26,824 nt of DNA from a virus (lineage: Duplodnaviria; Heunggongvirae; Uroviricota; Caudoviricetes), in IMG/VR virus record IMGVR_UViG_2671180673_000010, positions 1 through 26,824 of that record. The stretch is one strand, 5' to 3'. Positions 5,199 to 26,824 of this stretch are shown here, piece after piece. The notes beneath the pieces are model-generated. The model was not told the origin of the DNA, made no database searches, and saw nothing but the letters and a program-made list of their open reading frames with translations. Position 1 is the first letter of the stretch; every line of letters starts with the position of its first letter. The translations under genes were made by a program, and so were the position numbers.

Positions 5199-6251
5199 AT
5201 GAATCTGGTGATGTCAGATATTACCCGCAACAAGCTGGGTTGCTATATGGCGCAGCAGGCGTCGCTTAACAATATCCCGGTATCTGCACTGGTATCGCGA
5301 TTTACCGTGGAACCCGCGGTGCAGCAGCGTTTTGAAAACGCCTCAAAGGAAAGTACCGAATTTACGAAAAGAATTAACGTGATCGGCGTGACCGACCAGA
5401 AAGGCGAAAAAATCCTCCTGGACACCACCGGGCCAATTGCGCGCACGAATAGCAGTTATGACGGCATCAAACGCCGTAACCCGAATAACGTGATCGATAT
5501 GAAGTCTCGTCAGTACCAGTGCGAACAGGTGAACTACGATACCTTTATTTCGTACCCACAGCTTGATACCTGGGCGGCCCACAGCGATTTTCAGTCCCGT
5601 ATCAGTACACAGATCGCCCGGCAGGTAGCGCTTGATCGCATCATGATTGGCTTTAACGGCACATCCCACGCCTACGAGTCTGATTTTCACACCAACAAGC
5701 TGCTTCAGGACGTTAACGTGGGCTGGCTGGAGCACATCAGAACCGATGCCAGCGAGCGCGTAATGAATGACGTGACGCTGACCTCCCGCAACATGGACAA
5801 CACTGTGGCGCACGCGGGTAAGTATGCGAATGCCGATGCTCTGGTACAGGATGCGCGCTCATCCCTGCTGGATGAATGGCACAAGGAAGCTGACGACCTC
5901 GCGGTGATTATGGGGCGCAACCTGTTTAACTCGCTGCGTCTGCCCGTGCTGAACAGCATCAGCGGCCAGAATCCCAATGCGGAATTACTTGCCGGGCAGC
6001 TCATCCTGTCATCGCGCACCATTGGCGGGCTGGGCGTGTTCCTTGCGCCGTTCTTCCCGGATGCAACGATGCTTATCACCTCGTTCAACAACCTGTCGAT
6101 TTACTGGCAGAAAGGTTCAATGCGTCGCCTGATGAAAGACGAGCCGGAATACAACCGCATCGCCACCTACCAGTCCATCAATGACGCTTATGTCGTTGAA
6201 GACTATGGCAAGTGCGCGATGGTCACTGGCCTGAAGTTCGCCGACAGCTAA
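5199..6251 (+). CDS. N: Major capsid protein, P2 gpN homologue
   Basis: 350 aa; AAGGAG SD 9 nt upstream; conserved stretches (FTVEP, GWLEHIR, YVVEDYG) match P2 gpN from memory. Confidence 0.9.
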   Translation: MNLVMSDITRNKLGCYMAQQASLNNIPVSALVSRFTVEPAVQQRFENASKESTEFTKRINVIGVTDQKGEKILLDTTGPIARTNSSYDGIKRRNPNNVIDMKSRQYQCEQVNYDTFISYPQLDTWAAHSDFQSRISTQIARQVALDRIMIGFNGTSHAYESDFHTNKLLQDVNVGWLEHIRTDASERVMNDVTLTSRNMDNTVAHAGKYANADALVQDARSSLLDEWHKEADDLAVIMGRNLFNSLRLPVLNSISGQNPNAELLAGQLILSSRTIGGLGVFLAPFFPDATMLITSFNNLSIYWQKGSMRRLMKDEPEYNRIATYQSINDAYVVEDYGKCAMVTGLKFADS

Positions 6252-7895: not shown

Positions 7896-8219
7896 GTGAG
7901 CACCATTCAAACAGGGATCACAGAGCAGGTTATTGCGTGGCTCTTTGACCACCTGCCAACGGTGTATGCAGTAGGCGCGGCGGTCAGCATTTCCGCGCTG
8001 ATGAGTCTTTATGACGGACGAACACTGGTTCAGACCGTAACGGGATCGCTGGCGTGCGGCGTTCTTGCCATGGCCGTGGCCGGGTCGCTGCGCTTCTTCG
8101 GGATCCCTGAGGATGCAGTGACGTTTTTTGGTGCCTCAATCGGTTTTATGGGCGCAGAGAAAGCACGCGACAAGGTTATTGCAATATTTGATCGCAGGGT
8201 GAAGGAGAGGAACGAATGA
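7896..8219 (+). CDS. Holin (class I-like, three hydrophobic segments); GTG start
   Basis: GGGGGAG SD 5 nt upstream of GTG 7896; three hydrophobic stretches and a charged C-terminus (EKARDKVIAIFDRRVKERNE); position just upstream of the endolysin. Confidence 0.55.
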   Translation: MSTIQTGITEQVIAWLFDHLPTVYAVGAAVSISALMSLYDGRTLVQTVTGSLACGVLAMAVAGSLRFFGIPEDAVTFFGASIGFMGAEKARDKVIAIFDRRVKERNE

Positions 8220-8608
8220 GCAACACATTTAAATTCAGCAGCCGGAGCGAAAAGAATTTGCAGGGTGTAAATCCTGATCTGGTGAAAGTGACCCGACGGG
8301 CGCTGGAAATCTCGGAAGTGGATTTTGGTATCACCGAAGGATTGCGCAGTCGTTATCGTCAGAAGCAGCTCGTGACCACAGGCAAGAGCCAGACCATGAA
8401 CAGTCGCCATCTCACAGGGCATGCCGTGGATGTTGTGGCTTATGTCGGCAACCAGGTGTCATGGGAATGGCCGCTGTACGAAAAAATCGCAGCAGCATTC
8501 AGACAGGCCAGCCAGGAACTGAATATTCCGGTGGAATGGGGCGGCGACTGGAAGACCCTGAAAGACGGACCGCATTTTCAGTTACCACACGGAGCCTATC
8601 CGGCATGA
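8216..8608 (+). CDS. Endolysin, peptidase M15 family (L-alanyl-D-glutamate peptidase type)
   Basis: Zn-ligand-like motifs SRHLTGHAVDV and GPHFQL; start overlaps holin stop (ATGA). Confidence 0.8.
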   Translation: MSNTFKFSSRSEKNLQGVNPDLVKVTRRALEISEVDFGITEGLRSRYRQKQLVTTGKSQTMNSRHLTGHAVDVVAYVGNQVSWEWPLYEKIAAAFRQASQELNIPVEWGGDWKTLKDGPHFQLPHGAYPA

Positions 8609-9000
8609 AGCTCTGGCCCACGCTTGGCGTCGCTTTCCTTCTGATTACATCCATGCGTCTGTCGTGGTCGCTGGGCCGGGAGAACGCCAGAAACGAAGCG
8701 CAGGCCAGCACCCTGAAAAGTACCGTCGACACACTGAATATCATCAGCGCCGGGGTACAGGATATGCAGCAGGTGCTGGCTCAGCTCCGCGCGGAAAATC
8801 AGCAACGCAATCAGGACGGAGAGGTAAGACGTGAACAGCTACGCAACGATATTGCAAAAGATGAATGCGCCCACGCTTTGCCTGACGCTCGTTTTACTGA
8901 CAGGTTGCGCAGGCACGCAGAACGCGCCAGGGCCAGCGCCGTCAGTCCGGCTTATACCGCAGACGCTGACCATGCCGGTAACGCCTCCCCCCTTCCCTGA
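8605..9000 (+). CDS. Inner-membrane spanin (Rz / LysB-like)
   Basis: N-terminal signal-anchor MKLWPTLGVAFLLITSM, charged coiled-coil-like body; ATG overlaps endolysin stop; true start is inside track ORF 8461..9000. Confidence 0.65.
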   Translation: MKLWPTLGVAFLLITSMRLSWSLGRENARNEAQASTLKSTVDTLNIISAGVQDMQQVLAQLRAENQQRNQDGEVRREQLRNDIAKDECAHALPDARFTDRLRRHAERARASAVSPAYTADADHAGNASPLP

Positions 9001-9142
9001 CCCACCCACATGGGGAAACCTCGGAATATGGGGCGACCGCCTTCTGGATGCACTGGAAACCTGTAACGCGGATAAACGGGCCATTGCTGAACTGGATAAG
9101 AGAATAGCCGAACTGACACACCAGACGGGAGTAACACAATGA
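8861..9142 (+). CDS. Outer-membrane lipoprotein spanin (Rz1 / LysC-like), overlapping the Rz gene in another frame
   Basis: Lipobox LLTGC 15 aa after the Met, Pro-rich stretch PVTPPPFPDPPTW; starts inside Rz and extends beyond it as in P2 lysB/lysC. Confidence 0.6.
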   Translation: MNAPTLCLTLVLLTGCAGTQNAPGPAPSVRLIPQTLTMPVTPPPFPDPPTWGNLGIWGDRLLDALETCNADKRAIAELDKRIAELTHQTGVTQ

Positions 9143-11016
9143 CCAGTAAGAACTTTGCACTGATTACAGCCATGACACAGGCTGAACTGACTCAAAAGGT
9201 GAATGAACATCTTGCGAAAGGGTGGCATCTTCAGGGGGAGACGCGGGTTGCCTACGAACCCGGCACCCCGTGGTATCTAATGCAGGCAATGGTGGCCGAT
9301 GGCACTACAGACATCTCACCTGATTCCCCCCAGCACGGCAGCGTGCCGGAGTGGTATTACGTGGTGGTACTTGCTGGTCAATCCAATGCCATGTCATATG
9401 GTGAGGGAATGCCGCTGCCGGATTCTTACGATGCGCCCCACCCACGCATTAAGCAACTGGCCCGTCGCAACACAGTGACTCCCGGTGGTAAAGCATGCGC
9501 ATTTAACGACATCATTCCGGCAGACCACTGCCTGCATGATGTTCAGGATATGAGCGCACTGAATCACCCGAATGCAGACCTGAGCAAAGGGCAGTATGGC
9601 TGTGTCGGACAGGGCTTGCATATTGCCAAACGCCTGTTGCCTTACATTCCACAGAATGCCGGGATTTTACTGGTTCCATGCTGTCGTGGTGGTTCGGCAT
9701 TCACCCAGGGCGCGGAGGGGACATTCAGCGAGTCCACAGGAGCCAGTCAGGATTCGGCTCGCTGGGGTGTGGGTAAACCTTTATATCAGGACCTGATTTT
9801 GCGCACGAAGGCCGCATTGCAGAAAAACCCAAAAAACATGCTGCTGGCCGTATGCTGGATGCAGGGCGAATTTGACATGAGCGCCGCTACGTACTCACAG
9901 CAACCTCCGCTGTTTACGGCCATGCTGAAACAGTTTCGTGCGGACATTACCGAGTTTAACACGCAGTGTCATGGAGGCAGAGCGGCAAGTGTGCCATGGA
10001 TTTGTGGTGACACGACGTATTACTGGAAAAACACCTACGGCACGCAGTACGACACCATTTACGGGGCGTACAAAAACAGGGAGAGCGACAACGTTTTCTT
10101 TGTGCCGTTCCTGACCGATGGTAGTGGCAACAATACCTCCACCAACGCACCAACGGAAGATCCGGATGCTGCAAGTGAGGGATATTACGGTTCGGCATCC
10201 CGAACGAACAAAAACTGGGTATCATCAAATCGCCAGACGCATTTCAGCTCATGGGCGCGTCGTGGCATTATTCCCGATCGTATGGCAACCGCTATTCTGA
10301 ACGTAGCCGGTCGCACCTTAGCCTTCATCAGTGGTAAGGCACCGGAAATCAAACCCTCGCCCGGCGGCGACACGCCATCGGGGCCGTCTGAAGATGCATC
10401 CGTACGCACAATCTCCCTGTTGCCGACAGCCGGAGATGCTGCTGCGCAGGGCTGGAGCATTAAGAATGGCGGAATTCAGTTGTCAGAAGGTGTATTTAAG
10501 ATCACCAAGCAGAGCAATAAAGCCTGGTCCCTGACGCGCCCGGTGGATGACGCAGTCTCCCTGCTGACACGGGGTGGCAGACTGAGCTGTAAGTTTCGAC
10601 TGTCAGGCGCACTGACCAACAAACAGTTCGGTCTGGGAATTTATCTGTATACCGATGTAGCGTTACCTGACGTCGTGGCGATGACCGGGACTGGTAACCC
10701 GTTCCTGATGTCGTTCTTCACCCAGACCACAGACGGCAAACTGAATCTGATGCATCACAAGAAAGCAGGAAACACAAAGTTGGGCGAGTTCGGGAATTAC
10801 AGTAACGACTGGCAGACGCTGGAGCTGGTGTTCACCGCCGGCAGTGCCACGGTTACTCCGAAACTGAATGGAGTGGCTGGCCCGGCATTCCAGGTCATAA
10901 AAGACAGTCTGACACTGGGGCTGAATGCGCTGACGTTAACTGATATCACTAAAAATGCCGCGTACGGCGTCGATATCGGCAGCCTGGTGCTGGAAATCAA
11001 TAATCCCGCAGCATAA
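9139..11016 (+). CDS. NanS-p-like sialate O-acetylesterase (SASA/SGNH-type) with small N-terminal domain and roughly 250-aa C-terminal domain
   Basis: VLAGQSNAMSYGEG (GQSN catalytic-Ser motif) and CWMQGEFD; N-terminal roughly 50 aa resembles DUF1737; start overlaps Rz1 stop (ATGA). Confidence 0.6.
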   Translation: MTSKNFALITAMTQAELTQKVNEHLAKGWHLQGETRVAYEPGTPWYLMQAMVADGTTDISPDSPQHGSVPEWYYVVVLAGQSNAMSYGEGMPLPDSYDAPHPRIKQLARRNTVTPGGKACAFNDIIPADHCLHDVQDMSALNHPNADLSKGQYGCVGQGLHIAKRLLPYIPQNAGILLVPCCRGGSAFTQGAEGTFSESTGASQDSARWGVGKPLYQDLILRTKAALQKNPKNMLLAVCWMQGEFDMSAATYSQQPPLFTAMLKQFRADITEFNTQCHGGRAASVPWICGDTTYYWKNTYGTQYDTIYGAYKNRESDNVFFVPFLTDGSGNNTSTNAPTEDPDAASEGYYGSASRTNKNWVSSNRQTHFSSWARRGIIPDRMATAILNVAGRTLAFISGKAPEIKPSPGGDTPSGPSEDASVRTISLLPTAGDAAAQGWSIKNGGIQLSEGVFKITKQSNKAWSLTRPVDDAVSLLTRGGRLSCKFRLSGALTNKQFGLGIYLYTDVALPDVVAMTGTGNPFLMSFFTQTTDGKLNLMHHKKAGNTKLGEFGNYSNDWQTLELVFTAGSATVTPKLNGVAGPAFQVIKDSLTLGLNALTLTDITKNAAYGVDIGSLVLEINNPAA

Positions 11017-11039
11017 GGAAGAGCAGGAGAGCAAAACAG

Positions 11040-11507
11040 ATGCTTAAGACAAACAGTCTGCGAGAGTCCATGCTTCATGGGTGTCGGTGGTGCCAGGCTA
11101 ATCCCGAGAAATTCACCATTTTCGTGGAGAGCGGCAACATTGAAACGACCGGAGAAGCGCCCTCGTTTGTTTACCGCTATCAGATGGTGATGTTTGTCAT
11201 GGATTACGCCGGAGAGCTGGACGACCTCACGCTGCCGCTGCTGGCGTGGTTATCCGAAAATCAGCCACAGTTGTTGCTCAATCCGGAGCGTAATCAGGAC
11301 ATCAAATTTTCTGCCGTTATCAATGACGATGACAGCGCCGATCTCCTGTTTACGCTCCCCCTGCGGGAACGCGTTCGCATCACGCGCAACAGTCAGGGCA
11401 CACCGCAGGCAGAACACCTGCCGGAGCCAAAACCCCGTCTGCCTTCTTCCGAAGGCGACTGGTCGCATGTATTCCAGGATGTGACGTGGGGTGAAAGCGA
11501 TGGATAA
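11040..11507 (+). CDS. R: Tail completion protein, P2 gpR homologue
   Basis: 155 aa, same length and position as P2 R. Confidence 0.8.
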   Translation: MLKTNSLRESMLHGCRWCQANPEKFTIFVESGNIETTGEAPSFVYRYQMVMFVMDYAGELDDLTLPLLAWLSENQPQLLLNPERNQDIKFSAVINDDDSADLLFTLPLRERVRITRNSQGTPQAEHLPEPKPRLPSSEGDWSHVFQDVTWGESDG

Positions 11508-12135
11508 GGCATTCACCCGCGTGGATGAAACCTTTGAGGCTATCCGCGACAGCCTGAATCAGCAGGCCATCAATAACATCGCCAGAAAGCTGGCACAGGA
11601 TTTACGTCGCGCCCAGCAGGCACGTATCCGGTCACAAAAAGCGCCGGACGGGACCGAATGGACACCACGCAGACGCCGCGTAACCCGGATACAGGAGCGC
11701 ATTCGCTTTATCTGGAATAACGAAGCACGCACGCTGAAAAACTGGCATCACGACACAGGGAAATACGGGCGAACCATTACCGGGTGGGATGAGGATAAAA
11801 ACAATATCCGCACGTTTTACCGGGATGACATCGACCGTTTTCTGGAAATACGCACCCGGCGCATCAACCAGGACAGCACAAAGCGCGTCCCCATGTTCGT
11901 AAAACTGCGCACCGCCCGCTACCTGAAAGCCCGTGCAGATGCCTCCGGTGTGACGGTGGGTTACAGCGGCGTGGCCGCACGTATTGCACGCGTTCATCAG
12001 TTCGGTGAGCGCGATCAGGTTGCGCCGGGCATTTTCACCGATTACCCGGTACGTGAGCTGTTGGGTATCAGCCAGGCAGATGAGCGCCTGATTTATAACA
12101 CGGTGCTGGGCCGGATTGCGGAGGCTGTACGGTGA
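11491..12135 (+). CDS. S: Tail completion / virion morphogenesis protein, P2 gpS homologue
   Basis: Position between R and V; overlaps R at the start and V at the end; start could instead be ATG 11500. Confidence 0.7.
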   Translation: MKAMDKAFTRVDETFEAIRDSLNQQAINNIARKLAQDLRRAQQARIRSQKAPDGTEWTPRRRRVTRIQERIRFIWNNEARTLKNWHHDTGKYGRTITGWDEDKNNIRTFYRDDIDRFLEIRTRRINQDSTKRVPMFVKLRTARYLKARADASGVTVGYSGVAARIARVHQFGERDQVAPGIFTDYPVRELLGISQADERLIYNTVLGRIAEAVR

Positions 12136-14490: not shown

Positions 14491-17106
14491 ATGAGCACGA
14501 AATTTAAAACCGTTATCACTACTGCCGGAGCCGCGAAGCTGGCAGCCGCCACTGTTCCCGGCGGGAAAAAAGTAAACCCGTCTGCAATGGCTGTGGGTGA
14601 CGGTAATGGCCAATTGCCGGTGCCGGATGCCGGTCAGACGAAACTGGTGCATGAAGTCTGGCGTCACGCTCTGAATAAAGTCAGTGTGGATAACAAGAAT
14701 AAAAACTATATCGTGGCTGAACTGGTTGTTCCGCCAGAAGTGGGCGGCTTCTGGATGCGTGAGCTTGGTCTGTATGATGATGCCGGAACACTGATTGCGG
14801 TATCCAACATGGCAGAAAGCTATAAGCCAGAACTGGCTGAAGGCTCCGGACGTGCGCAGACCTGCCGCATGGTTATTATTCTCAGCAACGTGGCGTCCGT
14901 TGAGCTGAGTATTGATGCCAGCACAGTGATGGCGACGCAGGATTACGTCGATGACAAAATCGCAGAGCATGAGCAGTCCCGCCGCCATCCTGACGCCACG
15001 CTGACAGAAAAAGGTTTTACTCAGTTAAGCAGTGCAACAAACAGCACCAGTGAGTCATTGGCGGCAACGCCAAAAGCGGTCAAGGCAGCAAATGACAACG
15101 CAAATTCACGTCTGGCGAAAAATCAGAATGGTGCAGATATCCAGGATAAATCAGCTTTTCTGGACAATGTTGGCGTTACCAGCCTGACGTTTATGAAAAA
15201 CAACGGCGAAATGCCGGTTGATGCTGATCTGAATACATTTGGTCCCGTTAAGGCTTATCTGGGGATCTGGTCTAAAGCTACCTCAACTAACGCAACACTG
15301 GAGAAAAATTTCCCGGAAGATAATGCTGTCGGTGTGCTTGAGGTTTTTGCTGCCGGCAATTTTGCAGGCACGCAACGCTTTATCACGAGAGACGGCAATG
15401 TATACATGCGTAAACTCGCCAATAAGTGGAATGGCACTGATGGTCCGTGGGGCGCATGGCGTCACACTCAATCAGCGACCCGCCCTTTGAGTACGACTAT
15501 AGACCTGAATACGCTTGGAGCCGCCGAGCATCTTGGTTTATGGCGTAACAGTAGCTCGGCTATAGCTTCATATGAACGTAATTATCCAGAGGAAGGCGGC
15601 TTTGCTCAGGGGACGCTTGAGATCCTCGAAGGCGGGAATTATGGAAGAACGCAACGTTATACCACTCGCCGTGGAAATATGTATGTCCGCTGCCTTGCGG
15701 CAAGCTGGGATGCATCAAATCCGCAGTGGGAACCGTGGTTAAGAGTCGGTCATCAGTCAGAGAGTCGTTATTACGACGGGGATTTGAATGATGTGACTTC
15801 ACCAGGTATTTACAGCGTTACAGGTAAAGCGACCAACGGTCCAATACTGGACAGAAACGGCGTGACAGTCCTCGGTATTCTGGAGGTGTTGAGGCGCTTT
15901 GATGGTGTTAACGTATGGCAGCGTTATACAACTGCCGGAACAGCTGCAACCCTTAAAGGTCGCACGTTTGAGCGCGTCTATACCGGTAGCTCGTGGAGCG
16001 AATGGCGGGAAGTCTACACCTCGTATTCACTTCCCCTGAATCTGGGTATCGGCGGTGCTGTGGCAAAGCTCACCAGCCTGGACTGGCAGACCTACGACTT
16101 TGTGCCGGGCAGTCTGATAACCGTTCGGCTTGATAACATGACCAACATTCCCGACGGTATGGACTGGGGCGTCATTGATGGCAACCTGATAAACATCGCA
16201 GTGGGTCCGAGTGATGATTCCGGTACGGGGCGCTCAATGCATGTATGGCGCAGCACTGTAAGTAAAGCGAATTACCGCTTTTTTATGGTGCGTATTTCAG
16301 GAAATCCGGGAAGCCGCACGATCACGACAAGACGTGTGCCAATTATCGACGAAGCCCAGACATGGGCAGAGAAACAGACATTCAGCGGTGGTCTTTCAGG
16401 TGAACTGTCCGGCAATGCTGCTACAGCGACAAAGCTGAAAACGGCAAGGACAATTAACGGCGTAAAATTTGACGGGTCGGCAAATATCGAAGCGTTTCCG
16501 CCAGGTGTTCCGTTGCCGTGGCCATCAGATACACCACCTGCGGGCTATGCAATTATGCAGGGGCAGACGTTCGATAAGGCTGCATATCCGAAACTGGCTA
16601 TAGCCTATCCTTCAGGTGTTATTCCAGATATGCGCGGCTGGACAATCAAGGGCAAACCCGCCAGTGGGCGAGCCGTATTGTCACAGGAGCAGGACGGGAT
16701 TAAATCGCATACTCACAGCGCCAGTGCGTCAAATACGGATTTGGGAACGAAAACGACCAGTTCATTTGATTACGGCACGAAGACGGTCAGTACGTTTAAC
16801 CACGGCACAAAATCAACGAACAATACGGGCAATCATACGCACACTGTCGGTGGTGTTTATGGCGGCGACTCTGTCGGTGGAAAACAGCGTGTACAGGCTT
16901 CAGGAAACAATCAGGTGTCCAGCACCGCCGGAGCGCACGCCCATACGGTGGATATTGGTCAGCATAACCACACTGTAGGTATTGGTGCCCATGCACACAC
17001 TGTGGCCCTGGGTGCGCACGGACACACCATCACGGTAAATGCTACGGGTAATACCGAAAACACCGTCAAAAACATCGCATTTAACTATATTGTGAGGCTT
17101 GCATAA
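14491..17106 (+). CDS. H: Tail fibre protein, P2 gpH homologue with divergent C-terminal receptor-binding region
   Basis: N-terminal roughly 200 aa nearly collinear with P2 gpH ([21 protein letters not shown]..., [22 protein letters not shown]...); C-terminus has tandem repeats and a HxHTV-rich tip. Confidence 0.9.
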
Positions 17107-17681
17107 TGGCTTTCAGAATGAGTGCAGAAGCACAAACTATCCGCGTTTTCAATTTACTTGATGGAACCAATGAATTTATTGGTGAAAGTGACGCATATAT
17201 TCCGCCGCATACAGGTCTGCCTGCAAACAGTACAGATATTGCACCGCCTGATATTCCGGCGGGTTATGCAGCCGTTTTCAATGCAGATGAAATGAAATGG
17301 GAACTGATGGAAGACCATCGCGGAAAGACCGTCTATGAAACGAAAACGGGAGCAGCCATTTATATTTCTGAACTTGGCGTATTACCTCCAGACGTGACAG
17401 CCATTTCCCCGGAGGGGGATTATCAGAAATGGAACGGCAATGCGTGGGTGAATGATGAGAATGCAGAGCGTGATGCGCTTGTCAGAGCGGCTGACTCTCA
17501 GAAGAAAGAGCTGATTGCATATGCAGGTGAAATTATTGCCACTCTGCAGGATGCTGTCGATTTAGATATGGCTACCGAGGAAGAAAAGTTAAGCCTGACA
17601 CACTGGAAAAAATACCGTGTGCTACTGAATCGCGTTCAGCCGGAAAATGCCCCTGATATCGAATGGCCAGAATTAGTGTAA
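17106..17681 (+). CDS. G: Tail fibre assembly chaperone, P2 gpG / Tfa homologue
   Basis: 191 aa directly downstream of H, start overlapping H stop (TAATG). Confidence 0.8.
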
Positions 17682-17702
17682 AGGCAAGATGATTTAAGGA
17701 AC

Positions 17703-17732
17703 AAAACCGCCAATATGTTTATTAGCGGTTTT
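17703..17732. terminator. Bidirectional intrinsic terminator between convergent G (+) and U (-)
   Basis: Stem aaaaccgc (17703..17710) / gcggtttt (17725..17732), 14-nt loop; A-run on one side and T-run on the other. Confidence 0.5.
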
Positions 17733-17740
17733 GCATTAAG

Positions 17741-18235
17741 TCAAAACAACCCTTTAACGGAGCTGGCCGCGCTGTTAAGAGATGATGTGACCTTATCTTT
17801 GAAGCCGGACAGCATATCGCTGAACGATGAGGATTGCAGGCGCTCCCGCAAATCCTCATCACAGCGTTCAAGGGTCAGTGAAAATTCTATCTTTTTCGCC
17901 TTACCGTAGCGATCAAACTCGGAACGGGTCGTATTCGTTTCGGTCAGGACATACATGCCGTAAATCTGCCCGACGCCATCAATCAGAGGCCAGGGTCGTC
18001 CTGTATACGCCTGCGTGGTCAGCAGCGACAGCGACACTTCGCCACCTGTAATTTCAGGATAAAGCACACCAGAAAGAACGATGCGATCATCACCTGCACC
18101 GATATACTGCCAGCTTGCTGAACGGTTAACGCGTTCATTTTTCACATGCCGCCAGCTTTTGTTTTGCTGTAACTGCTGATGCGGCAGCGTGCGCAGCTCA
18201 AAAACAAACATGCCGTAGATCATCATCATGGCCAT
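17741..18235 (-). CDS. U: Tail protein U, P2 gpU homologue
   Basis: 164 aa; N-terminus MAMMMIYGMFVFELRTLPHQQLQ resembles P2 gpU from memory. Confidence 0.8.
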   Translation of the reverse strand: MAMMMIYGMFVFELRTLPHQQLQQNKSWRHVKNERVNRSASWQYIGAGDDRIVLSGVLYPEITGGEVSLSLLTTQAYTGRPWPLIDGVGQIYGMYVLTETNTTRSEFDRYGKAKKIEFSLTLERCDEDLRERLQSSSFSDMLSGFKDKVTSSLNSAASSVKGLF

Positions 18236-18241
18236 GACTCC

Positions 18242-21085
18242 TCAATCTTTATCGTAAAAACTGCCACGCCCGGCACGGGCGCGCCGTTCCATTTCTGCCC
18301 TGACCATTTCACCGACCAGTTTCGCCAGTTCGCGGGGATTCTGCGTAACAACGTTATGCAGATGAACATGAATTTCACCACCAAATCCGGAGGCAACAGG
18401 CTCCCGGTTACGGGAAGTTACAGGAACTGATGCCACTGGAGATCGTATAGCCTCCGCCACCGGGCGGGAGCTGGCCGCAACAACAGGGACCAGCGCCGGA
18501 GGCAGCGGAGCCGGGACCACGGGTGTGATATTAATTGCGGGGGCAGGCTTACTGACCTGCGCAATCTTCCGCTCCTGCCACTCCCCACGAACAGCAAGTG
18601 CTCGGGGCAGGTTTTTAAAGACAATATCGCCGGGGCCAATGCGTTTTTTCGTCTCCTCAACCAGCTTACCTGTGTTATCAGCAATTTTGCTGAGTCTGCG
18701 CAGCGTACCGGTATTGCTGTCTGTGAGCGGTTTATTGTCTTTGGGGTTATCACCTCCGGTGCCATTGCCATTTTCCACAGGCTTCGGCGGATTGATTTTC
18801 GCCAGGTCCCCCTGAAGCAAGGCAACCTTGTCCTGAAGAATGGCCGCACGCTGTGCGTCTTCGATTTTCTTGCGCGCCCTTTCCGCTTCATCCGGAAGCA
18901 CACCAAGCTTTTCAAGTATCCACGCCAGCGTATCCAGCAACATTTTTGCAGGTGTCAGAACAAGTTGTAACGCACCGCCAAGAACGTTACCGAATATCTC
19001 GCCAGCACTGGTACATTTATCCAGAGTTTCCTTGCTGGACTCCATCGGAGACAGCAGCGATTTAAACCAGTTAAACACCTGGCTGATCCCACTCCCGATT
19101 GCGTCAAAAACAGGACCAAACCGTTCAAAGGTTTCGCGCAACGGGGTCAGCCTTTCCATAATCCCGCTGAACACCCCGGCAAAAAATGCCCTGATGGGAT
19201 CCCAGTATTTCCAGATGAGAACGGCAGTTCCGGCAAGCGCAGCCACGATAAGGCCGACCGGACTGAACAACGCCCCGATAGCGCCCCCCAGTAACGAAAC
19301 GGAACCCGTCACCATTCCCCATAGTGCTGGCAGGAGTCTGACAGCATTCATTGAACCGGTCAGGAGGGAAAAGCCAAGACGCAGTTTTGCCAGCGGGCCA
19401 GCAAGCACACCAATAGCCAGCGACAACGAGCCAACCGTTGCAGTCATTGCCAGCAACGCACCGCCTGCTATCAGTAGCTGGCGCGTCAGTACCGGATGGG
19501 CCTGCGCCAGCGAGGTGATTTTTTCAAGCACCCGCGTGAGCCACTGCGTGACAGAACGCAGCGGACCGTCAACCAGATCACTGATGCGAATACGAAGACC
19601 TTCCCATGCGCTGTCGAGATTTTTCAGGTCCCCATCAAGATTATCGGCCATTACTTTTGCAACGCGATCGGCCTCTCCCCTTGCCCCCTGCAATTCTCTG
19701 GTCAGTTTTTGCAGCTCTCCTGAACCAGCCGCCGCAACAAGCGTCTGCAAACCAACGAACGCCTCTTCTCCGGCGATGTCCTTGAAGAAGGAAACCTGGT
19801 CCACCTGTCCGTATTTTTGTGTCGCCTTATAGAGATCAAGCAGCACATCCTCCATCGGGCGCATTTTGCCTCTGGCGTCAGCAACTGACACCCCCAGCTC
19901 TTTCAGCGCATCAGCCGCAGCTTTTGGCGGTGATGCAAGGCGGGACAGACTTGCGCGCATGGCCGTACCAGCATCGCTTCCACGAAGACCATTATTGGCA
20001 AGCATCCCGGCCATGGCTGCCGCTTCTTCAAGACTGATACCAAGTTTTGCGGCAACCGGACCGGTATACTTCATGGTTTCGCCCAGCGCGCGTAAATCAG
20101 TATTGGTCCGGGTGAATGCCGCTGTCAGCGTATCGCCAACCCGGTCCATTTGATCGGCTGTCAGGTTGAACTGTGTGAGGATATTGGAGCCTATATCAGC
20201 CGTCTCGCCGAGTTCGACGCCACCTGCCAGCGCCATATTAAGAACACCGGGCAATGCGGCCTGAATGGCCTGCGGAGTAAAACCAGCCATTGCCAGAAAG
20301 CTCTGCCCACTGGCGGCATCACTCGCAGTAAACTGTGTTTCAGAGCCAAGTTTTAACGCCTGCTCACGCAGCGCCTTAAACTGCGGGCTGTTTTTGTCGA
20401 TTCGCGTCAGCGCCTGAACGCGGGACATCTCTTTGCCGAACCCGATCGCGGGCTGCAAAAAACGCCCGGCAGCATAGCCGCCCGCCGCTGCCGCACCAAT
20501 TGCCAGCGCACCACCTGTTTTCAGTTTTCCCGCGGTTTCCTGCGCGCGCGAATACCGCTCACGAGCCTGCGTTACACGCGCAAGCGCCTGCCGTTCGCGT
20601 TCAAGCTGGTTGTTGTATTGTTCGGTGCGTCTGATGGCCTGCTGGATGGTGTTATCGCTGCCTGTCAGGGAAATGCCGTGGCGTTTCAGTTCTCCGCCAA
20701 GCTCCCGCATTTTCTGAATTTCCCGTGTGCGCGATTCATTCAGGCGTTCAAGCCGGGTGCTTAACTGCTGCATCAGCTTTTGTTGTTTTTCGCTGAGCAC
20801 TGTACCCGTGCGTTGTAACTGATTAAGGGCGTTAAGCTGGCGTCGTGCTTTCACGATACCCGCATCCGCTTTACTGACAGCGTCGCGGGCGCGCTCAAAT
20901 GAACGCGCCTGACGCTCGAGATTTTTGATCGCCCCCTGCGTTCGCTGAATGGAGTCACCAAACTGCCCCATCAGGCGGCGGGCGTTTTCGGCAGGCCGGG
21001 TCAGCCTGTCAACGGCGCTGAAAGCGACCCGGATGTCAAGAGTCTTCATTATCTGCATTCCCGCTGCGAAGTGCCGCCCGCTCAC
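18242..21085 (-). CDS. T: Tail tape-measure protein, P2 gpT homologue
   Basis: 947 aa, Ala/Gly-rich with long helical stretches, start overlapping the E' extension; track start 21085 is GTG, and ATG at 21058 or 21049 are alternatives. Confidence 0.85.
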   Translation of the reverse strand: MSGRHFAAGMQIMKTLDIRVAFSAVDRLTRPAENARRLMGQFGDSIQRTQGAIKNLERQARSFERARDAVSKADAGIVKARRQLNALNQLQRTGTVLSEKQQKLMQQLSTRLERLNESRTREIQKMRELGGELKRHGISLTGSDNTIQQAIRRTEQYNNQLERERQALARVTQARERYSRAQETAGKLKTGGALAIGAAAAGGYAAGRFLQPAIGFGKEMSRVQALTRIDKNSPQFKALREQALKLGSETQFTASDAASGQSFLAMAGFTPQAIQAALPGVLNMALAGGVELGETADIGSNILTQFNLTADQMDRVGDTLTAAFTRTNTDLRALGETMKYTGPVAAKLGISLEEAAAMAGMLANNGLRGSDAGTAMRASLSRLASPPKAAADALKELGVSVADARGKMRPMEDVLLDLYKATQKYGQVDQVSFFKDIAGEEAFVGLQTLVAAAGSGELQKLTRELQGARGEADRVAKVMADNLDGDLKNLDSAWEGLRIRISDLVDGPLRSVTQWLTRVLEKITSLAQAHPVLTRQLLIAGGALLAMTATVGSLSLAIGVLAGPLAKLRLGFSLLTGSMNAVRLLPALWGMVTGSVSLLGGAIGALFSPVGLIVAALAGTAVLIWKYWDPIRAFFAGVFSGIMERLTPLRETFERFGPVFDAIGSGISQVFNWFKSLLSPMESSKETLDKCTSAGEIFGNVLGGALQLVLTPAKMLLDTLAWILEKLGVLPDEAERARKKIEDAQRAAILQDKVALLQGDLAKINPPKPVENGNGTGGDNPKDNKPLTDSNTGTLRRLSKIADNTGKLVEETKKRIGPGDIVFKNLPRALAVRGEWQERKIAQVSKPAPAINITPVVPAPLPPALVPVVAASSRPVAEAIRSPVASVPVTSRNREPVASGFGGEIHVHLHNVVTQNPRELAKLVGEMVRAEMERRARAGRGSFYDKD

Positions 21086-21574
21086 GCCAGCTAACCACTT
21101 CGCCGGGCGTCATCATGAAGATTTCGGCGGGCGACCAGTTGAAAATGGCGGCAATATCCGCCACCAGATCTTCGATGTGCTCAAAGCACACCAGGGTGAT
21201 TACGCTGCCGTCTCCTGCACGCTCTTCGCGCCAGAGTCTGGCTCGCTCATAAAATTTACAGCCACAGCGCACAACTGAATAAAATCGCGTGACGACATTT
21301 TTTTAATCATCACTTCATCCAGTCGTGGCGAGGTCACGCGAGGCAACAGCGTGAACATGGTATCCGCTTTCAGATTCAGCACATCAGACAGCGACAGACC
21401 ACGCAGGGATCCCGCCTGCTCAATAGCCCCGGTGATCTCCACATATGTGATTTTTTCGGCACCACGCTCAATTGGCCGGGAAAGTTTTACACCACGTTCG
21501 ACAGCCATATCCTCACCTGACGTCACATCATCCGCTACGGTGTTATTCCGGGTTTCAGTATCGATATCTTTCAT
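21036..21574 (-). CDS. E+E' programmed -1 frameshift product (shift inferred at the A7 run 21298..21304)
   Basis: -1 frame is open from just after TAA at 21305..21303 down to 21036 and overlaps the T start; A AAA AAA T run lies in E codons 91-92. Confidence 0.55.
21200..21574 (-). CDS. E: Tail assembly chaperone, P2 gpE homologue
   Basis: 124 aa immediately upstream of T and downstream of FII. Confidence 0.75.
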   Translation of the reverse strand: MKDIDTETRNNTVADDVTSGEDMAVERGVKLSRPIERGAEKITYVEITGAIEQAGSLRGLSLSDVLNLKADTMFTLLPRVTSPRLDEVMIKKMSSRDFIQLCAVAVNFMSEPDSGAKSVQETAA

Positions 21575-21629
21575 CAGTTGTCTCCTTTTCAGTCAGAGGC
21601 GACGCACTGCGCCGCCTGCATATTACTTA

Positions 21630-22142
21630 TCAGCCAAGCCCAAGCGCGGAACGAATGCGGTCAGGCACAATGTCCTTGCCGTCCTTCCGGTAGATGTGGT
21701 TCAACAGGTCGATTTCCCACAGCGGGCGATCGTTAACGCTCAGCTTGTAGTAGGTGTTTTTGACAGCGTAAGTGTGTGATGTGGCTTCGCCCTGTTTGGC
21801 CTCCCCCATATCAATTTCCGTCACACGCCCGCGCATCTCGATTTCATACAGATCGCTTTCTGCATCGGTGTAATATTCACCCGCAAAACGCAGCAGCGTG
21901 CCGTCAATCGTGCCGCCATACTTAAGGAACAGTGCACGAACAGCTCCCCCCATGACAAAGCTCGCATCAAGCGCGGAGTCGTCCAGACCGAGATCAATAC
22001 TTACTGCTCCCATCATGCCACCACCACGATAGCTGTCGGTTTTGCGCGTCAGTTTGGGCGGCGTGACGGATGTCACTTTACCCACTTCGTTTTCACCATC
22101 CACAAACAACGTAAAAAAGCGAAGATGTTTTGGTACAGCCAT
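21630..22142 (-). CDS. FII: Tail tube protein, P2 gpFII homologue
   Basis: 170 aa, start overlaps FI stop. Confidence 0.85.
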   Translation of the reverse strand: MAVPKHLRFFTLFVDGENEVGKVTSVTPPKLTRKTDSYRGGGMMGAVSIDLGLDDSALDASFVMGGAVRALFLKYGGTIDGTLLRFAGEYYTDAESDLYEIEMRGRVTEIDMGEAKQGEATSHTYAVKNTYYKLSVNDRPLWEIDLLNHIYRKDGKDIVPDRIRSALGLG

Positions 22143-23326
22143 CAGGCACCTCCCAGCACCGCAAATGCGGGACCAAAGAATTCATCAGTAAACGTCTGGT
22201 AAAGCTCCATGTCTTCCAGCGGGGGAACGGGCGTATATTTGTAGCGAATACGCACACGCCCCTGACGTAAATCCGTGGTGCCGTTATCCACCACGTCATA
22301 CCAGCACTCCGCGCCAATCAGTTTCCCGGCAGTAACCAGCGAATCCAATTTTGCCCTGATGGCACTGATAACATCCTTCACGTTCGCAGGCGTCAGTGGA
22401 CTGTCGATGGTTTCAAACTGCGCTTCCGCAATTGAATCAGCCAGCACCTGTGCGGTTCGGGTATACACCTCAAAGATGTAGGCGTTCGTTTCCGGTGTGC
22501 GGTTGCCCCAGAAGCGGAACCCGTTACGACGAATAATGGTCGTGATTTCTTTGTTGTTGAGGCTGTTGGCATCACTGTCTTCGGCCTGTAACGACCAGAA
22601 CACATGCCTCGACATCCCCAGCACATTTTTAACCGGAACGTTGGACAGCGATTTGTGCCAGCCCTGCTCATGGTCAATGTACGCACGAAGGCCGCACGCA
22701 TAAGCAGGCGCGGGGAACGTTTCGTTTTTGCCACTTTTCGGGTTGTAGGCGATGAAGTCAGGCCATAAGAGCATCACCTCACGTTCGTTGAATTTCTGGC
22801 GGTAGGTAATCGCCTCAGCCATCGTGTTACAACCATGACATGTGGCATACACAAACGCGCGCAGTTTACCCGCAATCACGCACAGGGATTTTGTCACCGC
22901 CTCCGTGTCCAGCTCCGGCGCGGCCAGAATACGCGGACGGTATCCGATGCTTTCATCCTGCTCTGCAACAAGCAGCGCATACATCCCCGTATAGCTGCCG
23001 TCAGATTCAGAACCACCGATAACCAGTTGATCCTGCGTCCTACCGCCTTCTTCTTTGTGTTCAGCCACGCGAACGACGATCACTTTTGTGCTCACCTGGT
23101 CTGCGATAGCCTTAAGCGCACGATAAAGCGTCCCCGTAGTCCCGCATTTTCCCAGCACGTCATTGACGCGGGTCAGCAGTGTGGGCTTGTTCAGCGGGAA
23201 CAGCTCCGCATCCGCATCATCCGCCGTTGCCACGATACCGATAACGCTGGAATCAACATCATTAATCGCTGTTACCAGGTCGGTACTTTCCGTGACACGG
23301 GCACCATGAAAACGAGTTTCACTCAT
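22142..23326 (-). CDS. FI: Tail sheath protein, P2 gpFI homologue
   Basis: 394 aa, size matches gpFI (396 aa); first gene of the leftward tail operon. Confidence 0.9.
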   Translation of the reverse strand: MSETRFHGARVTESTDLVTAINDVDSSVIGIVATADDADAELFPLNKPTLLTRVNDVLGKCGTTGTLYRALKAIADQVSTKVIVVRVAEHKEEGGRTQDQLVIGGSESDGSYTGMYALLVAEQDESIGYRPRILAAPELDTEAVTKSLCVIAGKLRAFVYATCHGCNTMAEAITYRQKFNEREVMLLWPDFIAYNPKSGKNETFPAPAYACGLRAYIDHEQGWHKSLSNVPVKNVLGMSRHVFWSLQAEDSDANSLNNKEITTIIRRNGFRFWGNRTPETNAYIFEVYTRTAQVLADSIAEAQFETIDSPLTPANVKDVISAIRAKLDSLVTAGKLIGAECWYDVVDNGTTDLRQGRVRIRYKYTPVPPLEDMELYQTFTDEFFGPAFAVLGGA

Positions 23327-23483
23327 AGCTTCAGCCCCTTGTATCCGTTAAATGATTCGGCAACAATCATCACCCACCACGCGCGTAATCTCACCCCTGC
23401 GCCGTTCTCCCGCCACGGCGACAACAAAAAGCAGTAACCCCCTCCGCACGCACATGCGACCATGCCGCACAGGGAGGGAGCAG
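23327..23483. promoter_or_regulatory. Divergent promoter region for the leftward FI-FII-E-T-U operon and the rightward D-ogr genes
   Basis: 157-bp intergenic gap between divergent gene starts; no exact Ogr-box found by eye. Confidence 0.35.
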
Positions 23484-24593
23484 ATGACCGACACCACCAT
23501 GCAATTGCTCAGTCAGGGCACAGACCCCGTGAAAATGCCGGATTTTGATATTCTCGCGGAGGGTAAAACGCTGTCAGGCGTGGCAGAGCGCCTGATGAGC
23601 CTGTCACTGACCGACAACCGGGGATTTGAGGCGGACCAGCTCACCATCACGCTGGATGATGCGGATGGTCAGTTGCAGCTACCGCCACGGGGCGCGCGCC
23701 TGACGGTTCTCATTGGCTGGAAAGGAGAACCGCTGACAGAAAAAGGCACTTACATTGTTGATGAAATCGCTCACGAAGGACCGCCGGACAGGCTGACTGT
23801 TTCAGCCAGAAGCGCAGATTTTCGGGATGAATTTAACGTTAAACGTGAGGTGTCCTGGCATGATGTGACCGTTGAGCGTGTGGTATCCGCCATCGCTCAT
23901 CGGTATGGTCTGAAACCGCAAATCAGCGAAATGCTGATGGATATCGAAATCGACCACGCCGACCAGACCGAAGAAAGCGACATGTCCTTCCTTACGCGCA
24001 TGGCGGAAATGCTGGGCGCAATCACCACGGTAAAAAGCGGTAATCTGTTATTCATCATGCCCGGCGGTGGCGTGAACGCACAGGGCCAGCCGTTGCCATC
24101 GTTTGCCATCACACGCAGCAGCGGCGATCGCCATCAGTTCCGCATTGCTGACCGCGAAGCGTATACGGGGGTACGCGCTTACTGGCTTGATCTTAATTAC
24201 GGGAAAAAGAAAAAAGTCAGCGTGAAACGCCGTAAACCGCCAAAACCCAAAAAGGAGAAAAGCAGCAGCCGCGAAGGTGATTATATGGAAGGCGCGGAAG
24301 GCAATGTGTTTGTGTTACGCAAGACTTATCAGAACGAGCAGGCAGCAAGACGCGCAGCGGCGGCAAAGTGGCAGCAACTACAACGCGGAGCCGCATCATT
24401 CTCCATCACGCTGGCGCGTGGACGTGCAGAACTCTACCCCGAAATGCATGGCACGGTAACAGGATTTAAAAGCGAGATTGATAATCAGGACTGGATCATT
24501 GCAAAAGCCGAGCACACCATTGATAACAGCGGTTTTACCACGCAGCTTGAGCTTGAGGCAAAAATCCCGGAATGGATAGCGGAAACAGAGTGA
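23484..24593 (+). CDS. D: Tail protein D (late gene), P2 gpD homologue (ATG 23484 preferred over track start 23352)
   Basis: GGGAGGG SD 6 nt upstream of ATG 23484; 369 aa; position next to ogr. Confidence 0.85.
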   Translation: MTDTTMQLLSQGTDPVKMPDFDILAEGKTLSGVAERLMSLSLTDNRGFEADQLTITLDDADGQLQLPPRGARLTVLIGWKGEPLTEKGTYIVDEIAHEGPPDRLTVSARSADFRDEFNVKREVSWHDVTVERVVSAIAHRYGLKPQISEMLMDIEIDHADQTEESDMSFLTRMAEMLGAITTVKSGNLLFIMPGGGVNAQGQPLPSFAITRSSGDRHQFRIADREAYTGVRAYWLDLNYGKKKKVSVKRRKPPKPKKEKSSSREGDYMEGAEGNVFVLRKTYQNEQAARRAAAAKWQQLQRGAASFSITLARGRAELYPEMHGTVTGFKSEIDNQDWIIAKAEHTIDNSGFTTQLELEAKIPEWIAETE

Positions 24594-24633: not shown

Positions 24634-24894
24634 ATGTTCCGTTGTCCGCTTTGTGGCGCATCTGCCCGTATCCGCACCAGTCGTCCGGAAAATGATTCAA
24701 ACACCGTGCGGCAAAAGTATTACCAGTGTAACAATCTGGAATGCGGCGTATGCTTCTCAACACTGGAAGCTTTCCATAAATTCACATCAAAACACGCCTC
24801 CGGCGTTCACTCTTCAGAAGGTATCCCGTGGCATGATCTGCCAGCTTCACACAGGGGAAACAATCAGATGAGTTTGCCTTTATCTCAGAATTAA
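24634..24894 (+). CDS. ogr: Ogr/Delta-family zinc-finger late transcription activator
   Basis: MFRCPLCGASARIRTSR...YYQCNNLECG matches the P2 Ogr pattern MFHCPLC...YHQCQNVNC (Cys4 finger); AAGGGAGG SD. Confidence 0.85.
   Translation: MFRCPLCGASARIRTSRPENDSNTVRQKYYQCNNLECGVCFSTLEAFHKFTSKHASGVHSSEGIPWHDLPASHRGNNQMSLPLSQN

Positions 24895-25531: not shown

Positions 25532-26824
<1,293 letters not shown>

Follow-up and report, generated by a model that had tools for sequence, protein, structure and literature searches.

A candidate NanS-p-family sialate O-acetylesterase with an apparently backbone-specific N-terminal domain at the lysC-R junction of a P88-like Escherichia coli prophage

Prophage-borne NanS-p esterases are viewed as colonisation factors of enterohaemorrhagic Escherichia coli (EHEC) and of Shiga toxin (Stx) phages, in which they unlock the sialic acid of O-acetylated mucins. 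What, then, is a gene of this type doing in a P2-type prophage, between the lysis and the tail completion genes? We analysed a DNA stretch of 26,824 nucleotides (nt) from the IMG/VR virus record IMGVR_UViG_2671180673_000010, hereafter the window, in which a single open reading frame (ORF) with an ATG start, 9139..11016 on the + strand, encodes a protein of 625 amino acids (aa) followed by a stop codon. A previous interpretation made without database searches, which we call the sequence-only reading, had taken it for a NanS-p-type esterase carried as late-operon cargo. Our analysis finds this interpretation largely right and adds what it had missed, namely that the gene is a chimera with a P2-specific N-terminal domain.

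The whole protein belongs to a recognisable family. Three Pfam domains scored above their curated cut-offs: DUF1737 (PF08410; residues 4–53, 28.8 bits for a cut-off of 24), SASA (PF03629; residues 75–271, 44.3 bits) and DUF6645 (PF20350; residues 476–586, 67.4 bits). Residues 1–624 matched the PHROG family phrog_143 (E=0), residues 69–388 aligned over 320 residues with the structure of E. coli NanS/YjhS (PDB 3PT5; E=1.7e-125, 70% identity), and residues 430–622 matched the structure of the NanS-p C-terminal domain (PDB 6YP6; E=1.1e-28). These profile, motif and structure matches are far above chance level. SASA proteins share a block I GQSN motif with the catalytic serine, a block III (H)QGE motif and a block V histidine (PMC9487903). 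In the window protein LAGQSN occupies residues 78–83 and WMQGE residues 240–244, and G80-Q81-S82-N83, Q242-G243-E244 and H368 were invariant or nearly so in an alignment of 38 homologues. The sequence-only reading had recognised the SASA/SGNH motifs, a DUF1737-like N-terminus and a C-terminal domain, and had proposed a NanS-p-type sialate O-acetylesterase; Pfam, phrog_143, both structures and the alignments bear this out. Judged by its motifs and its similarity to NanS, the protein can be assigned to the NanS-p family of sialate O-acetylesterases, with the DUF1737-SASA-DUF6645 architecture, and is predicted to be catalytically intact. Its exact 625-aa sequence was not found in a collection of 15 billion proteins, where the nearest entries are 94–99% identical, and the RefSeq label for the gene is 'DUF6645 domain-containing protein'.

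An AlphaFold2 model of moderate confidence (mean predicted local distance difference test score, pLDDT, of 70.8) agreed with this domain organisation. The N-terminal DUF1737 domain, of a P2-type subtype (N-domain; residues 1–55, 9139..9303), was modelled as a beta-alpha-beta-beta unit with strand 5–11, helix 14–26 and strands 29–38 and 46–53 (pLDDT 60–84). It is followed by a variable linker (residues 56–68, 9304..9342) and by the SASA/SGNH catalytic domain (residues 69–390, 9343..10308), with Ser82 at 9382–9384, the QGE of residues 242–244 at 9862–9870 and His368 at 10240–10242. A second linker, rich in Pro, Ser and Gly (residues 391–422, 10309..10404), matches the inter-domain region reported to be processed in gp84, the NanS-p of phage phi24B, and leads to an all-beta, lectin-like C-terminal domain modelled with a pLDDT of ~90 (the DUF6645 region, C-domain; residues 423–625, 10405..11013). 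Both linkers are predicted to be disordered, with pLDDT values <50 at residues 56–75 and 393–421. All these segments lie on the + strand.

The domains differ in their relationships. Over the whole protein, identity was 81% to the copies of the lambdoid phages JLK-2012 and 434 and 51% (48–51%) to that of 933W, unevenly distributed along the length. At the DNA level, similarity to JLK-2012 remained at background up to ~9343 (codon 69, in PEWYYV), at the 3' end of the first linker, and then stood at ~85% up to ~11005, four codons before the stop. The body downstream of this left recombination breakpoint (residues 69–625) was 86–87% identical to the lambdoid copies, and the N-domain had only 22–31% identity to their N-domains (933W 22%, JLK-2012 31%). 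We compared each domain among three P2-like proteins (the window esterase and those of two other loci, L010 and L016) and two lambdoid ones (JLK-2012 and 933W). For the N-domain, identities were 58–75% within the P2-like group, 58% between JLK-2012 and 933W and 22–42% between groups, with no notable pair across backbones. The catalytic domain gave 66–70% within the P2-like group, 71% between the two lambdoid proteins and 66–86% between groups, the pair of the window and JLK-2012 reaching 86%. Values for the C-domain were 35–41% and 35%, respectively, and 33–87% between groups, with 87% for the window and JLK-2012 and 56% for L010 and 933W. On these comparisons the gene is a chimera, in which an N-domain found only in P2-like phages is joined at codon ~69, at a sharp breakpoint, to a body shared with lambdoid copies; the enzyme body has evidently been exchanged between backbones by recombination, and the N-domain follows the phage backbone. 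Within the ~85% region, a stretch of ~80 nt (10855–10935) is 100% identical to JLK-2012 (~5695–5775 of locus L003), which suggests that nanS-p paralogues sharing a cell recently underwent gene conversion.

Searches with the N-domain delimited its relatives. A tblastn search of residues 1–68 against 50,697 phage records returned only three records, all with the same insert, and an exhaustive HMMER search with the same residues among 1.84 billion representative sequences gave 11 matches, none of them a lambdoid NanS-p. The closest relatives were fragments of another esterase, which we traced to seven viral-contig loci. Three of the seven were examined: they are P2-like and encode a DUF1737-SASA-DUF6645 protein of 645–656 aa at the lysC-R junction; at L014 the ORF runs off the contig end. 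The L010-type esterase (656 aa) was present in 14 of the 5,426 complete E. coli genomes that served as the sample for all our genome counts. At L010 a gap of ~400 nt (9972–10372), with a 90-aa ORF on the minus strand, separates the esterase from R, where the window has a spacer of 23 nt. The nearest standalone DUF1737 proteins, P0016 and P0017, had no relatives in viral contigs, and a single-protein scan of species genomes with the N-domain found only Escherichia albertii (44%) and a weak match in Hyphomicrobiaceae. None of the phage-record, HMMER and species-genome searches identified a donor of the N-domain.

The N-domain has been maintained. Between the window and the allele of E. coli OkiPb01713, we counted 10 synonymous and 3 non-synonymous changes in 52 codons, a ratio of non-synonymous to synonymous substitution rates (dN/dS) of 0.07; deeper comparisons gave 0.12–0.20 where measurable, with dS saturated in the rest. 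Three P88-type alleles, 87–91% identical, are nearly invariant over residues 1–55 and vary in the linker and the body. By these codon comparisons the N-domain is under purifying selection and therefore has a function, for which tethering to the virion is the leading candidate. The esterase body is also found joined to other N-terminal modules at the same PE[WY]YY/FV point. In P0133 (689 aa; L019–L021), the module is an unknown one of ~110 aa, and the gene lies in a Mu-like prophage, after gin and between gin and com/mom. In P0101 (917 aa; L017–L018), it is a side-tail-fibre N-terminal domain (PF08400) followed by a coiled coil, encoded next to a tail-fibre assembly gene at one prophage end.

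The position of the gene is that of a late gene. The order in the window is gpL, X, holin, M15 endolysin, Rz-like spanin, LysC/Rz1, esterase, gpR, gpS and gpV. The lysis cassette consists of a holin (7896..8219; PF05106, phrog_126), an M15 peptidase endolysin (8216..8608; PF13539, phrog_465), an Rz-like i-spanin equivalent to lysB (8605..9000; DUF2570, phrog_214) and lysC, encoding an Rz1-like o-spanin (8831..9142; PF23793). The holin start was inferred from the P88 annotation and that of the i-spanin from the coding sequences (CDS) of PV468777 and P88; for lysC we give the longest ORF, the true start being uncertain. The ATG of the esterase (9139–9141) overlaps the TGA of lysC (9140–9142) in an ATGA, with GGGAG 8 nt upstream. 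Downstream, a 23-nt spacer (11017..11039), free of terminators and bearing a GGAG ribosome-binding site for R, leads to the tail completion protein gpR (11040..11507; PF06891) and to gpS, a tail completion/virion morphogenesis protein (11491..12135; PF05069). All these features are on the + strand. The match to phage P88 stops at ~9087, in the 3' end of lysC, whose last ~17 codons differ from those of P88, and restarts a few tens of bases inside R, whose diverged first ~10–20 codons mark the right edge of the replaced tract. Neither the insert nor the spacer holds a + strand terminator-like site, promoter-like sites around the insert occur only at chance level, and the base composition of the insert is not anomalous. 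Because of the ATGA overlap, the lack of a terminator, the chance-level promoters and the unremarkable composition, the esterase can be taken as a regular member of the late operon, which covers head, lysis and tail completion. The sequence-only reading had likewise placed it between the lysC-like Rz1 and R of a P2-type backbone, in translational coupling with the lysis cassette; the matches to PF23793, PF06891 and other P2-family genes confirmed the position.

A survey of the lysC-R junction, which that reading had proposed, found ~375 occupied and 689 empty, uninterrupted P88-type junctions in the 5,426 genomes. Positions 8700–11500 of the window were covered over at least 80% in 373 genomes, and the junction with the N-domain (9060–9350) was present in 376; carriers thus make up about 7% of the sample, with the gene intact and annotated as a CDS, and roughly one third of the P88-like prophages have the esterase, ~2/3 being without it. 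Among the 40 junction matches listed, all fell within the esterase gene in a P2-type context, with lysC annotated beside nearly all of them. Carriers include sequence type 131 (ST131) strains (EC958, JJ1886), O104:H4, O26:H11 and O103:H2. With such numbers and at least two further P2-like lineages, to regard the P2-type location as unusual, as the sequence-only reading did, was an overstatement. Its placement of the lambdoid copies just downstream of the lysis genes was also incorrect, since those of 933W, JLK-2012 and 434 follow Q/tRNA/stx and precede the holin. In E. coli OkiPb01713 (L009, 5944–6579), gpS contains an internal stop (annotated as a pseudogene) and the esterase is intact, which hints that the esterase can outlive the ability of the phage to form particles. 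Three 'phage' records (ON470599.1, ON470623.1 and PV468777.1) end inside the esterase gene, the first with host genes at its other end. We considered them as evidence of induced particles and rejected them, as they are prophage predictions from draft contigs; they look like records broken at the repeated nanS-p sequence, which would hence under-report the gene.

Members of the family have been studied in some of the carrier strains. For EC958, Kakkanat et al. 2017 (PMC5425062) list the protein EC958_1029 with 82.7% identity to its paralogue from a lambdoid prophage, EC958_1546; judging from its locus-tag position and this percent identity, EC958_1029 is very probably the P2-type esterase. Esterase activity and support of growth on Neu5,9Ac2 are documented for NanS-p proteins of EDL933 and of O104:H4 strain C227-11, and all five of C227-11 phi-cu were reported to be active (review PMC8065619). 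The C227-11 genome matches the esterase core at only five places, one of which is a P2-type allele 91% identical to that of the window; as five active proteins were reported and five places match, this allele was very probably among those assayed. The searched literature, including a 2026 survey of 5,945 P2-like genomes, contained no description of NanS-p in P2-like phages. The family is therefore known, and the P2-type backbone is a setting in which it had not been explicitly described before.

We consider it likely that the gene specifies a catalytically intact sialate 9-O-acetylesterase of the NanS-p family, established as a stable late-operon resident of a P88-like prophage beside serS. 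Given the lack of signals of its own, its expression would be limited to late-operon transcription following induction. By inspection, no secretion signal is apparent and the N-terminus corresponds to the folded DUF1737 domain; the protein would thus depend for its release on phage lysis, brought about by the holin, endolysin and spanins. Outside the cell, the enzyme may de-O-acetylate the Neu5,9Ac2 of mucins, guided to glycans by its lectin-like C-domain, and the freed sialic acid (Neu5Ac) could be used by surviving kin lysogens, as for the NanS-p of EHEC. Several observations weigh against parts of this scenario. A weak promoter-like site at 9113–9140 might permit expression outside the late operon, and the phage records bearing the insert are in-silico prophage calls and not isolated particles, which bears on inducibility. 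In addition, overexpression of EC958_1546 led to hypermotility and that of EC958_1029 had no effect on motility (PMC5425062), although this null result is uninformative on esterase activity.

How the P2-type N-domain might serve the phage is suggested by phi24B, whose gp84 is reported to be a capsid decoration protein anchored by its DUF1737 domain of one helix and three antiparallel strands; in hexameric form this domain sits on the central hexon of each T=9 facet, and the enzyme portion is subsequently released by cleavage (preprint 10.64898/2026.04.10.717836). The anchor loop of gp84 carries an aromatic 'tooth', Tyr42, and processing occurs at Ser/Pro linker motifs (10.64898/2026.04.10.717836). 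By analogy, the P2-type DUF1737 might bind the hexons of its own gpN and decorate the head with an enzyme that helps the virion to bind to, or move in, O-acetylated mucus, an idea that we regard as possible but rather doubtful. Apart from the hexameric capsid binding of the phi24B domain, it draws on the same one-helix, three-strand layout predicted for the window N-domain, on the purifying selection acting on this domain in the P2 context, and on its subtype tracking the phage backbone as the enzyme body does not. The fusions of the same body to a tail-fibre N-terminus and to a module of a Mu-like prophage point in the same direction, as does the location of the gene inside a morphogenetic operon, ~3 kb from the capsid gene; the product of the latter, the P2-family major capsid protein gpN (5199..6251, + strand; PF05125, E=1.4e-115), is the candidate partner should the N-domain bind capsids. 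The loop AYEPGTPWY, equivalent to the gp84 anchor loop, has aromatic residues, in a gapped and ambiguous part of the alignment, and the esterase linkers contain ISP/DSP and PSP motifs. However, the DUF1737 domains of JLK-2012 and 434 are 90% identical despite capsid proteins without sequence similarity, a control that rules out a strict rule equating N-domain subtype with capsid family. The 933W capsid protein had no sequence similarity to the P2-type gpN, and both are unrelated to the capsid proteins of JLK-2012 and 434. Furthermore, in phi24B only the flat hexon in the centre of the T=9 facets was seen to be bound, whereas P2-type capsids are T=7 and do not have this position, and we know of no decoration protein of P2-like virions. 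The linkage with the backbone may also be trivial if diverged N-domains offer no crossover homology and only the body is converted, and the many P88-like prophages without the gene indicate that it is not needed for assembly. We therefore advance only tentatively, and with slightly more reserve, the broader proposal that the P2-type DUF1737 is a capsid-binding adaptor, the first known head decoration of P2-like phages, and NanS-p a payload mounted on backbone-specific adaptors; the candidate adaptors observed are the lambdoid and P2-type DUF1737 domains, the module of the Mu-like prophage and the tail-fibre N-terminus.

The gene might instead be cargo that benefits only the lysogen, its N-domain serving oligomerisation, folding or stability and its P2 sequence representing an old separate lineage, a view to which we give an even chance. 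In EHEC, nanS-p genes serve as growth factors on Neu5,9Ac2. The phage can do without the gene (the site is empty in 689 genomes), the lambdoid DUF1737 subtype is indifferent to the capsid family, and recombination mechanics can explain the linkage of N-domain and backbone. Yet this leaves unexplained both the presence of the phi24B domain on capsids and the fusion of the body to a tail-fibre N-terminus, and a late-only, lysis-dependent expression is odd for a trait of the carrier cell, as only its kin would profit. A nutritional role is compatible with display on the virion, and the two could coexist. It is very unlikely, by comparison, that the protein is a tail-associated receptor-modifying enzyme, that is, a tailspike-like deacetylase acting on an O-acetylated polysaccharide of the host surface. 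The gene does lie immediately 5' of R and S, whose products complete the tail, other phages carry SGNH esterases on their tails, and the homologue P0101 includes a tail-fibre N-terminus (PF08400), but Pfam and PHROG revealed no tail-attachment or fibre domain in the protein, which starts with DUF1737; the phage has its own fibre H with an assembly protein, residues 69–388 of the catalytic domain show 70% identity to a sialate-specific enzyme, and most close relatives with the same tail genes are without the gene. Scarcely credible, finally, is a non-functional remnant carried passively: apart from the presence of several paralogues in each genome, nothing specific speaks for it, and hundreds of genomes keep an intact reading frame, with all catalytic motifs conserved and a dN/dS well under 1 even in the N-domain.

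An intact sialate O-acetylesterase residing in the late operon, which remains our preferred reading, has consequences beyond this prophage. NanS-p is frequent in P2-type prophages, including those of the pandemic extraintestinal pathogenic E. coli (ExPEC) ST131 and of the O104:H4 outbreak lineage, and its P2-type carriage in ~7% of complete E. coli genomes implies that the mobile nanS-p gene pool extends past lambdoid phages. The exchange of the body with the N-module kept with the backbone offers a handle on whether NanS-p benefits the lysogen, forms part of the virion or does both. Should the N-module anchor the enzyme to particles, module swapping would be a natural route to enzyme display on phage heads; otherwise the gene is an ordinary accessory esterase. 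What is new, a backbone-specific N-domain in an otherwise known type of enzyme, is modestly novel.

The rest of the window is consistent with a P2-type prophage. Pfam identified Phage_cap_P2, GPL, tail X, holin, M15 peptidase, LysC, GpR, tail S, base V, GpU and GPD, and the window also encodes a portal, a terminase, a scaffold and a tail fibre. The nearest named phage is P88 (Xuanwuvirus, Peduoviridae), with ~96% DNA identity in the flanks and no esterase ORF. The host gene serS at the window end (25532–26824, − strand) indicates integration beside serS, and in related records ycaO-focA-pflB flank the prophage on the opposite side. Close to the right end of the prophage is a small regulator-like ORF that may be Ogr-like (24634–24894, + strand; phrog_603). 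The tail fibre H gene (14491–17106) is accompanied by a gene for a fibre assembly protein, and the genes for tail sheath, tube, E, tape measure and U (17741–23326) are on the − strand, opposite to the other late genes, followed by gpD on the + strand (23352–24593). P2 itself has a co-linear late-gene order, from which the P88-type arrangement differs. In the O104:H4 2009EL-2050 prophage, an extra gene annotated as 'serine O-acetyltransferase' (L005, 22184–22756) lies between the tail-fibre assembly gene and gpU; the same junction in the window spans only ~60 nt (17681–17741) and is empty, and it looks like a second variable cargo site. Beyond the portal are two ORFs (317–628, − strand; 809–1372, + strand), one without a Pfam or PHROG match and the other matching only phrog_5091, of unknown function; this region is a frequent site of variable accessory genes in P2-like phages.

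Compared with known systems, the window esterase shares with the NanS-p of Stx phages (933W p42/EDL933 z1466; phi24B vb_24B_21, that is, gp84) the DUF1737-SASA-DUF6645 architecture, the catalytic motifs, a prophage location and a place on the late transcript. It differs from 933W p42 in sequence (48–51% identity overall, with 67% in the catalytic domain, 36% in the C-domain and 22% in the N-domain) and from the Stx-phage copies in setting, as these lie in lambdoid phages between stx/Q and the holin, whereas the window copy follows the lysis cassette, at lysC/R, of a P2-type myovirus. The closest relatives of the enzyme body are 'YjhS' of JLK-2012, the 'SASA family carbohydrate esterase' of 434 and probably EC958_1546; the JLK-2012 and 434 copies are located upstream of the holin, and their N-domain is only 31% identical to that of the window. 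The chromosomal NanS (YjhS, 3PT5) has in common with the window protein the catalytic domain with its GQSN, QGE and catalytic His, but consists of a single domain, without DUF1737 and the C-terminal domain, and belongs to the NanR-regulated nanCMS operon. T4 Hoc, cited in the phi24B preprint, offers a possible analogy as a dispensable surface module contacting mucin glycans, without any sequence relationship. The nearest parallels are the L010-type (656 aa) and L016-type (645 aa) esterases of P2-like phages, which have the same junction, architecture and N-domain subtype as the window esterase, with 58–65% identity in the N-domain and a shared motif EPG[TV]PWYLMQAM. Their phages encode a lysozyme-type endolysin and are rarer than the window type, and their catalytic domains (66–70% identity) and C-domains (35–37%) are as distant from those of the window as the domains of 933W.

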